A stretch of DNA of 64,000 bases, taken from positions 5,440,001 through 5,504,000 of the forward strand of contig OY762007.1 in assembly GCA_963665115.1 (NCBI GenBank). Direction: 5' to 3'. The notes beneath the pieces were generated by a model, which did not search any database, had not been told where the DNA came from, and was given only the letters and a program-made list of their open reading frames with translations. The translations under genes were made by a program, and so were the position numbers. Positions 47,914-53,813 of the stretch are shown here, in pieces. Within the stretch, counting starts at the first letter, position 1; each line of letters begins with the position of its first letter. This stretch comes from an uncultured Rivularia sp. GTDB taxonomy: Bacteria > Cyanobacteriota > Cyanobacteriia > Cyanobacteriales > Nostocaceae.

Positions 47914-48384
47914 TTAATAACGATAATGTGCAAAGGCTTTATTGGCTTCTGCCATCCGATGTGTTTCTTCCCGTTTGCGAATTGCGCTACCTGTTTCGTT
48001 AGACGCATCCATTAATTCGTTTGCCAGCCTGCTTGCCATTGTCCGGCCCGGACGCTGACGAGAATACTGCACTAACCAACGCAGTGCAAGGGTCGTACCC
48101 CTTTCCGAACGTACTTCCATTGGTACTTGATAAGTTGCTCCACCAACTCGTCGAGCTTTGACTTCTACCAGTGGAGTCAGATTGCGTATTGCTCTCTCAA
48201 AAACTTCTGTGGGTTCTCCACCAGTTCTTTCTTCGATAATTTTCATTGCGTCATAAACAATCCGCGCGGCAAGAGATTTCTTGCCATGACGCATGATTCG
48301 CCTGATTGTCATACTAATCAAGCGACTGTTGTAAACTGAGTCAGGCGGAACTGCGCGCCTTTGAATAACACCACGACGAGACAT
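47914..48384 (-). CDS. rpsG: 30S ribosomal protein S7
   Basis: [11 protein letters not shown] and [14 protein letters not shown]. Confidence 0.98.
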
Positions 48385-49023
48385 ACTTAACCTTTAATTC
48401 AATATAGCAACTACAAAGAAATGCTTTGATACTTCCGGGAATTATATAGTATGAATTCTCCTGCTTCATTTATGAGCTACGAACAACATTATTAATTGCA
48501 ACTCGGTTTTCGGATATGCCCTTACGCTCATAAATTAACGTCGGAATACTGCTCGCGATTGAGATTTTAAGCGAGCAAGATTCATTATTAGAATCTATAC
48601 TACCCAGATTAACCGCTCAAAAAATTTAAGTTGCTGTGGACTTTCTCAACTTTATCAGTATACAGATAACGCCCCGAATAGTTGAAAAACCGCTCCAACC
48701 ATACATATGAAGCGCCATCGTTTATACGTTGATATTTAAACGGAAATCCTGCGCCATAAAATGTTTTGGGCTTTTTCTAACGTCTATCCCTTGTGCTTCA
48801 TGCAATCCCTGGGTGGTGCAGTTGTTTTCCTTGCTGATTTGATGGCTTCCACTTGGGTTCGCAGACCAAAAGCAACACCTTAGAAAACAACTACAGCCCA
48901 CCCACAAGGATAAACTTGAAACACATCGCCCGCGTTTTGGGTAGCTGTAGACTTTTAGAACTTGAATTATATACAAACATCGCAAGTGAATCTAAAAAAC
49001 AATGCGAAAAACCACAGCGACGA
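48385..49023 (-). ncRNA. Putative large structured RNA in the rpsL-rpsG spacer
   Basis: 639-nt spacer with many complementary segments, both local and long-range (see findings). No credible ORF. Confidence 0.5.
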
Positions 49024-49404
49024 TTACGATGCTTCCTTCGGACGCTTCGTTCCGTACTTTGAACGACCTTGCTTGCGATCTTTTACTCCGGCAGTATCCA
49101 GAGTTCCACGAATAATGTGATATCTCACGCCCGGTAAATCCTTAACCCTACCGCCACGAATCATCACAACAGAGTGTTCCTGTAAGTTGTGACCAATTCC
49201 TGGAATGTAAGCAGTTACCTCGAATCCAGAAGTTAATCTTACCCTTGCAACTTTTCTTAGGGCAGAATTCGGTTTCTTAGGCGTTGTTGTATAAACCCTG
49301 GTACAAACGCCCCGTCTTTGAGGGCATTGCTTCAGAGCCGGGGACTTGGTTTTCTGACGCGCTTTAGAGCGCTCGTTACGAATTAATTGCTGTATTGTTG
49401 GCAT
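49024..49404 (-). CDS. rpsL: 30S ribosomal protein S12
   Basis: [19 protein letters not shown] and [12 protein letters not shown]. Confidence 0.99.
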
Positions 49405-49528: not shown

Positions 49529-49690
49529 AATTGGGGATTGGAAATTGGGAATTGGGGATTGGGAATTGGGAATTGGGGAGTAAAGCGTTGATGGGGAAGA
49601 CAATAAGGGAGCAAGATGCTCCCACTACAAATGTTTTTAGAACTAACTTCTAACTCCTAACTCCTAACTCCTAACTCCTAACTCCTCACT
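49529..49690. repeat. STRR tracts (GGGAATT)n and (CTAACTC)n with a half copy of the palindromic repeat
   Basis: Tandem heptamers, plus AGGGAGCAAGATGCTCCCACTAC at 49606-49628. Confidence 0.8.
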
Positions 49691-51132: not shown

Positions 51133-51161
51133 AATAATGTCTCCCCATCCCCCATCCCGAC

Positions 51162-53223
51162 TCACGGACGCGGTAAGAAAATACCAATGCCGTTATGAAC
51201 GCTTGCAGCAGTGTTGGGTGAGCGATCGAGTAATTGTCCCCCCAGATAAAGGCTTGTGGAACTACCACCGTCTAAATTTAGGGCGTTGACGCATCCTAGT
51301 TGCTGCATTAATTGAGCGTGTTCTGGTAAGCTGGGTCCTTTTCCACCAGCGCGATCGTGTACCGCAGCAATTATGAGTTTCCCGGTTGAGGTGGTACAAA
51401 TGGCGCTACGGATAGCTCTTTGTTCTGCGAAGGCTTTACTGAATTTTTCGGCTTCAGCATCGAGAACTATTCGATTGTCTTTTAGTAAAAGGGGGTCCGG
51501 CTCCTAATATATGGGGATAGCGATTGAATTCTGGAGAAACTGTGGAACTGGCTATACGTAAAGGAGTTCCAATTTGTAATTGAGCGGCGTTACTTACGGC
51601 ACCAGCACGCAAAGCTAGTAGATAGCCATTTTTTGGAATGGGAGCAAAGCCAACTCCAGCTTTACTTCCTGCATATTGTTGGGTAACTTTATTGTTTTGA
51701 ACGGCTACAATTATTTCGTTGTCGGTAAGAGGTGTATAGTTTTCTCCCCATTGATCGGTGTATCTAGCTATTCCTTGCTGTACGTATCCACTGTTTAAGT
51801 GAGAAATTGGCAGATTTTGATTGCCGGGAATTATTAAATTTTCTTGTAAAGAAAGCCGGTTCATGTAAAATTTTCCGGCATCGTCCCAAGCAATTGCTCC
51901 TCGATTAAGAATTGGCCCGGAGAGCCACTGACCATCTTTACGAATTGCACCCAAGGGTAAACGGTTTTTTCGATTGAAGAAACCACCGTTAATTGCGGCA
52001 GATGCTAAATATTTTCTCGCAGTTTTGATTAGTGGTGCGGTACCTTCTTGTTTTCCTTGGTTGGTAGCAACTGGTCTTATTTGTGCTTTGGAAGTTCGGG
52101 GATCGATTTCTAACCATACTACTGGAAAACGGTCGTTGCCCAAGGATACGAGTTGCTGTCTCCACAGCAATCCCGGTGCCCAATCGATTGAGCGTTCGAC
52201 TAAAGCATCCGGGCGAACATCTACAACTAAACGATTTGGTTTGGGTAAAGTGCTGACTTTTGGAGTTAAGCCGAAAGGAACTACTAGTCGAATAACTGTT
52301 TGATTGTTGACTACTTCGACTTGCTTAATAAGCGGTTCGGGAGTTTCGGTTGATATTGATGGCGGTGTCTTTCTGAAAAGATTGTCTAACTGTACAGGTT
52401 GCGGTATTGGTGGTGCAGGAGTATAACGGCTGATTAAATTAGGATTTGCGATTCCATCAATGGTAATTATCCACTCTCTTGCTGGGGGGGTTGGTTTGGG
52501 AGCGGGAATATCAATATCAGTATCGGTGTTGATTACAACACTTTTAGGTGGAAATGGTAGTGATGGTACTTTAATAGAGGGTTTTAGCTCGGGTTTTGGT
52601 TGAATTTTAGGTTTTGGTTTTTTAATCAAGGAACCCGCAGTCAACTTCCAAGGTGTTGGACGATCCAAATCAATAACTAACTGCTGCTGTTGAGATGAGG
52701 ATTTATCTTGTTTAATTGTTTTTACTTTTGCTCTTGGTGTAGAAATTACTAAGGTATTATCCTTTGCTTGTACTTTCCATCTTGCTTCCCGAGCAAATTT
52801 AGTAATGTCTAAATAACGATATCCCTGCTCTAAGAAACCAGTCAACACTTGCGGTTTAGATAGCGAAGAAAACCACTGTACTGGCTGTAGTTGCGGACTG
52901 TTAGTGCTTAATAAATCTACTCCTATTAGCTGGCGAAGTGCCCCATCACTGATATAAATCGCATCGCCTCGATCTTTATTTTTACCTTTTTGTTGAACCC
53001 AAGTTCCTGGTAAGGTGCGACCATTTACGGATATTTGATCGCCCCCAGATAATAATCCTTTTGAAGTGGATACAACCGACGGTTGATTTGATTGAGCTAT
53101 CTTTGGAACTTCTTTATAAGTTGGTTTAGCTTTAGTAACAGAAGTCGCAGTCAAATTTAGAATTATTGCCAAGGTTGGTAACGTCATAGCCTTGACAAAA
53201 AAGCGATTATTTTTATTAACCAT
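51162..53223 (-). CDS. Secreted phosphodiester glycosidase (NAGPA-like) family protein (one-base frameshift)
   Basis: Signal peptide, Pro-rich linker and AAINGGFF. Removing one base at 51491-51495 extends GAGPLL...IRSAI...ALNLDGGSST to TGA at 51162. The start is uncertain. Confidence 0.83.
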
Positions 53224-53813
53224 AGCAGTGCGGATTTTTCCTCGATCCAAAGTTAGATTTTTGACCATAATGTTGGTTAAGTAATAACTGCAAAAACTTA
53301 GTTTTCTGGCATATTTTCTGGCATAGGAATAATCATCTTCATAGTGCATAACACTAACGTGTTAAGGTATAAATACCCTTCTGTAAAAAGTTAATTCAGT
53401 GCGGGCAAGTTATAAGCAATGCATCAAAAAACAGATTTCTACTGCCAGAAGTTTTCAATATTTTTTACCTTGAAAAGATAAATCGAAATGTTTAATCGTT
53501 TTTGATACGACGCTACTTGTGCAGTGTGTAGCAGGTATTAATCAGATTTGTAAGTAGTACTTGCTCTCTTAGAGTGGGCGTAATACGACAAAATTTGCTC
53601 AAATCGGGAATTGCAAATCGACAATTAGTGTAATACGCTGGCTTTAAGGCACCCTATCAGCGGAATTTTGGTATTGAAAATATTGAACCATTACATAGAA
53701 GTTTTGTTTCATGCCGGCAATATATAACTCAATCTGTAAAAAAAACTTGCATTTCAGACAACCTAATTGAGAGAATATATAGCCTCAAGATATAAAGTCG
53801 GAAACTGGTAAGC

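Follow-up and report, generated by a model that had tools for sequence, protein, structure and literature searches.

The spacer between rpsL and rpsG in this cyanobacterium is under selection at the RNA level, specific to the RNA strand, in both the genus and the family. We favour, tentatively and at slightly less than an even chance, the reading that the spacer holds an mRNA element, folded differently from that of E. coli, by which translation of rpsG is likely coupled to rpsL and which likely answers to S7 feedback. Its conserved stems are likely the genus's rebuilt version of a structured element that most related cyanobacteria carry in the same position; the newness is carried mostly by this family-wide motif, not by the 639-nt RNA that a first-pass annotation had proposed. 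The cis-regulatory role suggested there is likely, in view of conserved islands and RNA-level selection, but the discrete 639-nt RNA and its specific switch model were not supported.

The gap between the two genes is real and occupies 48385-49023 of the window (the whole stretch analysed, 64,000 nt); it lies on the minus strand, as do the spacer features, boxes and genes described below. It is flanked upstream by rpsL (S12, 49024-49404), a 126-aa ORF that is 95-100% identical in relatives, and downstream by the putatively regulated cistron rpsG (S7, 47914-48384), a 156-aa ORF present in 46/46 genomes searched and followed by fusA, tufA and rpsJ (gene names from translations). The spacer is single copy in the 8.69-Mb genome. 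Spacers of the genus measured 527-978 nt in 22 genomes, a set made up of 23 loci minus two truncated ones plus one locus from a DNA search. In 45 other genera of the family (one genome each) the median was 408 nt (range 192-903), with 13 spacers of at least 500 nt and four of at least 639 nt. Shorter spacers (42-322 nt) were found in the 16 genomes of other cyanobacteria sampled: the nine cyanobacteria among 80 loci of an S7-based contig scan (42-211 nt) and seven genomes of other families (108-322 nt). The E. coli spacer, put at about 100 nt in the annotation, measured 96 nt. Within the source genome, 13% of 3842 co-directional gaps were as long as the spacer, an overestimate given that crude gene calling misses short genes. 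The 639-nt length is a lineage trait and ordinary here. A DNA search outside the genus returned short matches only, in 7/274 genomes.

Overall, the spacers of the genus diverge about as fast as four-fold sites, with whole-spacer identity at or below that of such sites. Conservation is concentrated in islands, at 48663-48634 (93% identity) and 48453-48385 (85-99%), compared with 45-58% in the arms, and the first of these sits 250 nt from the start codon. The main structure is an irregular rod of about 110 nt (helices N2-N6, 48638-48749), which was recovered in the MFE, centroid and RNAalifold consensus structures, with pairing probabilities of 0.78-0.98 for N2-N5 and 15-18 of 22 rows keeping each helix. 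Its 5' arm spans 48690-48765; its near-invariant, genus-specific 3' arm (48634-48663, 93% identity) carries a TATACT box. Just after the rpsL stop codon lies a hairpin, N1 (48980-49007), which keeps at least 80% of its pairs in 12/22 rows. RNAalifold also predicted two helices that reach the rpsG ribosome-binding region. The long-range helix N7 pairs 48635-48629 with 48412-48406 and shows two-sided changes, C-G to U-A in two genomes and A-U to G-C in four. The bridging helix N8 pairs 48969-48962 with 48402-48395; 19/22 rows keep at least 80% of its pairs, its probability is 0.03-0.46, it shows almost no covariation, and its 5' strand overlaps a TATAAT at 48971-48966. The 3' strands of N7 and N8 together form an 18-nt segment (48395-48412, 92% identity) directly 5' of the rpsG Shine-Dalgarno-like AAGG (48391-48394, read from sequence). 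The N8 part contains UGAAU, and TGAAT precedes the SD in 20/22 genus spacers, as in the E. coli spacer.

Covariation was scored on a genus alignment of 14 of the 22 spacers, the eight with large indels being left out. For the rod, N7, N8 and three smaller helices, 95.6% of positions were paired; the covariation score was reached by 2/500 shuffles and the count of two-sided cells by 9/500, but the number of pairs with a two-sided change was not in excess (3 vs 2.3; 211/500 shuffles). These statistics are support and not proof, because the structure was derived from the scored alignment and the genomes are kin. Changes to G-U outnumbered changes to A-C in the rod, N7 and N8 (12:0 in 14 rows, 24:9 in 22 rows), as against 123:132 and 179:176, respectively, outside these helices. 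In the eight held-out genomes, N5 was kept in all four that retain the arm and the 6-bp core of N7 in five, with A-U to G-C in four of these five, all of one clade. A helix from the first 80 nt of the spacer to the pre-SD strand beat control windows in 18/22 genus genomes, and clades used different positions for it; the bridging helix was weak in 7/22. This bridging signal was absent in the family, where 25/45 spacers beat control windows.

The fold drawn in the first-pass annotation fared less well. Every helix named there is present as complementary sequence, and the spacer folds better than shuffled sequence (z -3.5, 0/20 shuffles as good). It is nonetheless not exceptionally 'densely structured', since 7/29 co-directional gaps of 500-760 nt in the source genome, sampled out of 420 candidates, reached z of -3.5 or below. 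As length and folding energy are both ordinary, neither is evidence for a special RNA. Several of the named helices had ensemble probabilities of 0-0.07: the arm base 48782-48795/48903-48915, 48831-48835/48871-48875, CGTTTA/TAAACG, TTTTTCAACT/AGTTGAGAAA and TTATC/GATAA. Probabilities of 0.93-0.99 were obtained for the arm 48810-48904 and the hairpins at 48550-48577 and 48468-48535. In the 14-row alignment the annotated structure was 83.9% paired, without an excess of two-sided changes (12 vs 9.4 in shuffles; 91/500 as high). Both TTTTTCAACT/AGTTGAGAAA (17/22 rows) and TTATC/GATAA (21/22) stay pairable, since their strands belong to the conserved core; forming them is incompatible with the rod and, with CGTTTA/TAAACG added, costs about 8.6 kcal/mol relative to it. 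The long hairpin arm (48810-48904) is stable in this strain (0.94-0.99) and variable between lineages (kept in 6/22 and 11/22 rows; 46-62% identity). Hairpin R8 (48550-48577; 0.98) was kept in 18/22 rows without two-sided change, and hairpin R9 (48468-48535; 0.93-0.98) in 11/22, being variable and deleted in some relatives.

The proposed closing helix, R1, has moderate support across the genus. Its two halves are kept in 10/22 and 15/22 rows; its 5' strand lies at 48938-48953, and its 3' strand (48592-48606) is retained even where the partner is lost. R1 excludes N7. The competing pair GCTGTGG/CCACAGC, on which the switch model depended, was kept in 11/22 genomes, with A-C changes outnumbering G-U. 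The ensemble probabilities of R1 (0.01-0.72) and of the competing pair (0.09-0.48) both depended on the flanks included. When N7 and N8, R1 or the competing pair were enforced, the ensemble energies were equal, at -199.7 kcal/mol each. With N7 and N8, predicted unpairedness was 0.94 for the SD and 0.53 for the AUG region, and with R1 it was 0.75 and 0.20.

Relatives carry large, independent insertions and deletions (240-340 nt) in the spacer. In L101-L103 about 240 nt of other sequence (e.g. L102:1850-2110, minus) replaces the rod 5' arm; this replacement had only one weak second match, in G008, and its 3' end, we presume, resembles an IS200/IS605-type end. The rod apex is missing from L100. 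In L098 and L099, about 300 nt are inserted beyond hairpin R8, and a second block sits close to the 5' end. In L094 a HEARO-like insertion (1197-1403, E 0.026, below the gathering score) interrupts the conserved core and has displaced the N6/N7 strand; the HEARO-like element is multi-copy in that genome, with further copies in G002, G022 and G024. Each element is thus lost in some relative (the rod 5' arm in L101-103, the rod apex in L100, N6/N7 in L094), which counts against the reading we favour. The tolerated large indels argue against one compact 639-nt RNA and indicate that no single stem is indispensable.

At the level of the family, which we take to be the heterocyst-forming Nostocaceae as GTDB defines them, the 45 spacers of other genera have in common a covarying 5' hairpin, a core of about 120 nt and a pre-SD segment. 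The 5' hairpin was 88% paired, a value matched by 0/500 shuffles, and N1 is possibly related to it. The core was aligned in 38/45 spacers, leaving out three without it and four of extreme length; in this alignment 83.6% of it was paired and two-sided cells numbered 26, compared with 11.6 in shuffles (0/500 as high). A covariance model found the core in 129/150 family genomes, including 89/102 non-genus genomes absent from model building, and once per genome in all but one. All 32 hit loci that were checked fall in the rpsL-rpsG spacer (examples of motif loci are L163:1313-1437, L160:2026-2149, minus, and L189-L218). Across 96 genomes from the order's other families the model had no match, and the motif is absent from Rfam. 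Two further candidate structures were unsupported, namely a three-way junction closed by ATGCTG/CAGCAT (61% paired) and a local GCTGT/ACAGC hairpin (66% paired).

Some family spacers depart from this pattern. In L143, L152 and L178 the core is diverged and preceded by a common block of about 120 nt, which marks a distinct sub-type of the motif. Short spacers of 155-219 nt without the core were seen in L154 and L219 (genus g37), L220, L221 and L186; those of g37 carry STRR-like hairpins in place of the core. In L186 (G042:C6:2039191-2039659) rpsG has an apparent frameshift around codon 107-112; as the gene is essential, an error of assembly is the probable cause.

The rod 5' arm is likely a diverged homologue of the family core; the match is reciprocal, but it is weak in any single sequence, which counts against the favoured reading. 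The second-ranked of 10 covariance-model hits in the window lies at 48765-48624, with 15.6 bits and E 0.51 (family members score 31-140 bits); the model hit the same place in 9/21 genus loci, with three hits elsewhere. Searched genome-wide, it had no match in four genus genomes (the source genome and three others), and an HMM of the family core ranked the spot third in the source genome (E 1.1). In the reverse direction, an HMM of the rod 5' arm placed 14/17 best hits inside the family core, and one of the rod 3' arm matched 0/45 family spacers. The 3' arm is probably an addition of the genus, an apparent inverted duplicate. Family motif and window occupy the same position and have in common about 60 nt of collinear sequence (48752-48694), the pre-SD segment, the proximal TATAAT and a helix of the GCAAC/GTTGC type resembling N7 (80% paired in the family). 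In contrast, the family motif has short helices only, unlike the rod of the genus. The ancestral helices are largely broken in the genus, with the rod in their place: the ancestral GCGACAGCA/TGTTGTCGC helix and the hairpin that follows are mostly mispaired, and the strand now pairs within the rod. All genus members fall in one clade, which has a long stem.

In the reading we favour, a few conserved stems set in variable filler of the read-through mRNA would form a translational control site for the synthesis of S7 and EF-G. N8 and N7 are predicted to close the spacer into loops, which would set the rpsL-proximal strand next to the ribosome-binding site of rpsG, with the SD unpaired; the R1 state, predicted to be isoenergetic, would bury the AUG region more deeply. 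Ribosomes that finish rpsL could pass the looped-out 600 nt and start again on rpsG. As in E. coli, free S7, possibly bound near the N6/N7/N8 junction, could tip the balance and break the coupling. A bypass transcript free of the structure may come from an internal promoter near 48446; one starting from the proximal box (48446-48441) would lack every partner strand. We infer that on the stem branch of the genus a complementary 3' arm was added to the ancestral motif, an inverted duplication being the likely source, and took the place of the ancestral pairing.

The main rival explanation, rather unlikely in our view, is that the islands are mainly internal promoters for rpsG-fusA-tuf-rpsJ, working apart from rpsL, and that the stems are secondary. 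Three boxes could serve this purpose: the TATAAT at 48971-48966, correctly annotated at first pass, and two that had been missed, TATAAT at 48446-48441 and TATACT at 48662-48657. The proximal -10-like box (48441-48446) keeps T-A-n-n-n-T in 21/22 genus rows, is conserved in the family (aligned hexamer TATAAT in 25/45, TATAGT in 6/45) and is the best candidate internal promoter for rpsG-fusA-tuf. The TATACT is likewise kept in 21/22 and outlasts the loss of the rod 5' arm in L101-103. In Nostoc PCC 7120, where coordinates imply a spacer of about 500 nt, rps7 rose 5.9-fold and rps12 2.2-fold after 21 h without nitrogen, as given in the available part of the source and with replication unchecked (PMC3141674). 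A search for sigma-70-like sites, however, found none on the minus strand of the spacer, and the region had 4 vs 4.1 expected. The available portion of a PCC 7120 transcript map gives rpsL-rpsG-fusA-tuf-rpsJ as one unit with one listed start, upstream of rpsL; its rows give one start per unit, and PCC 7120 may have internal starts besides (PMC10287535). A search for start-site data in two supplements gave no match (PMC4734099, PMC3610870). Promoters would also leave the G-U bias and the two-sided changes unexplained. RNase III cuts intercistronic stems, and the rod might instead be a processing or stability element of the RNase III or RNase E type, parting the rpsL mRNA from the cistrons behind it and fixing the ratio between them with no sensing of S7. 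This is improbable: a long irregular duplex with probabilities of 0.78-0.98, kept in up to 18/22 genomes, would suit such a role, as would the differing responses of rps12 and rps7 in PCC 7120, but L100-103 lack the rod and the family motif consists of short helices.

We give a similarly small chance to neutral filler: in this large, repeat-rich genome most of the spacer would have no function, the ribosome-binding region alone would matter, and the stems would be left over from an inverted duplication. The low overall identity relative to four-fold sites, the tolerance of insertions and deletions, and the 13% of crudely called gaps that are as long and 7/29 that fold as well are what filler would predict. 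An island of 93% identity 250 nt from the start codon is not, nor are the two-sided changes in N7, found also in held-out genomes, or the covariation of the family motif. Least probable, and very much so, is an independent trans-acting ncRNA, transcribed from the box at 48971 or excised from the mRNA. The z of -3.5, the sequence-invariant core and the blank Rfam search could be cited for it. Yet the spacer has a single terminator-like hit, formed by the base of the variable arm, and relatives differ widely in spacer size and content. The long-range helix with the best support has the pre-SD strand as its partner, an indication of cis action. The available part of the PCC 7120 map has no separate or antisense unit in the spacer, its rows giving one start per unit (PMC10287535). 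The indel tolerance in relatives and the single PCC 7120 transcript together make a stand-alone ncRNA, including the discrete 639-nt one first proposed, unlikely.

Other identities for the spacer were rejected. A mobile element, repeat or MITE does not fit a single-copy sequence in which neither a tandem repeat nor a tRNA (ARAGORN) was found. A group I or II intron was dismissed given the single copy, the lack of an Rfam match and RNA-library contigs that cross the spacer unspliced. These are metatranscriptome contigs of relatives (X3/X4) that show neither ends nor strand and lend weak support; run X1 covered all 30 bins of a 15-kb stretch and may hold DNA. The annotated absence of a credible ORF needs a qualification: an 87-codon TTG ORF exists at 48722-48985, but it is not kept in relatives, and the longest ORFs vary in frame and length across the 22 spacers, which speaks against a small protein gene. 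The Rfam search, run as had been suggested, gave no match in the window or in 16 relative loci. This blank is uninformative as a sign of novelty, because E. coli's own S7 operator was also unmatched. The spacer is free of STRRs, as annotated. Two heptamer (STRR) arrays lie outside it, at 49529-49579 and 49643-49690, between the rpsL promoter region and an upstream ORF that we take to be iron-sulfur-assembly-like. Elsewhere in the window, a frameshift may affect the 631-aa ORF at 51454-53349, whose tail is atypical while protein-like sequence goes on in short ORFs at 51137-51308.

Should the favoured reading of a coupling element be true, the element would govern EF-G supply in nitrogen-fixing filaments. 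The family by inference includes the tractable Nostoc PCC 7120, which makes the motif directly testable; it is a candidate ribosomal leader worth separate study, and the genus offers a natural experiment in how the regulator of an essential gene is refolded in evolution. A bolder version, which we consider unlikely as a whole, would be an undescribed S7-operon riboregulator of heterocyst-forming cyanobacteria, with a fold unrelated to that of E. coli, rebuilt here by inverted duplication as a two-state RNA that loops out 600 nt for ribosome handover from rpsL to rpsG. S7, without rRNA mimicry, might be the ligand, or else S12, S10 or EF-G, and an internal promoter might bypass the switch when nitrogen is withdrawn.

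Comparison with known systems places the element beside, but outside, the gammaproteobacterial S7 autogenous operator known from E. coli. Structured cis-elements adjacent to r-protein genes are also what Rfam and recent screens describe as ribosomal leaders (available passages of PMC7247131, PMC12873609). Literature searches gave no description of the motif, nor did the passages available of PMC2662882; those of PMC12873609 and PMC7247131 contain no cyanobacterial rpsG/S7 element, and the supplement of PMC12873609 (202 cyanobacterial genomes) may list one. A likeness to 16S rRNA is reported for the S12-S7 spacer of the cyanobacterium Anacystis nidulans (Meng et al. 1989), and S7 feedback similar to that of E. 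coli has been proposed, according to the available passages of PMC3616713 and PMC10931766. The Anacystis spacer agrees with ours in its cyanobacterial str operon, its position and the proposed feedback. It differs in that the genus spacers lack 16S similarity, sequence and not structure being compared: against the 16S S7 site the mean z was 0.0 in the genus (2/22 above 2) and, weakly, 0.76 in the family (8/45 above 2). Words resembling h43 were seen by eye in some family members, but 16S mimicry was set aside, as the shuffle test was not convincingly passed.

For E. coli, the proposal is that the spacer structure helps to couple S12 and S7 while unbound and is disrupted once S7 binds; the determinants are AGUAA/UGAAN and CCA/UUGGR (PMC3616713, passages available). 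Position between rpsL and rpsG in the str operon, UGAAUUAA just 5' of the SD and a predicted helix joining the rpsL-proximal to the pre-SD strand are features of both systems. The differences are as clear. The E. coli operator is 96 nt vs 639 nt here, where a long rod and -10-like boxes are found instead. The AGUAA/UGUAA partner is absent from the window spacer, though UGAAU is present at 48401, and occurs in the first 40 nt of 1/22 genus spacers; S7 binding here is only proposed. The order of CCA/UUGGR is reversed, with TTTTGGA 5' of CCA in 15/22 relatives and CAGGA at that place in the window. Taken together, the spacer element likely works like the S7 operator, yet it stands outside the E. 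coli structural family.
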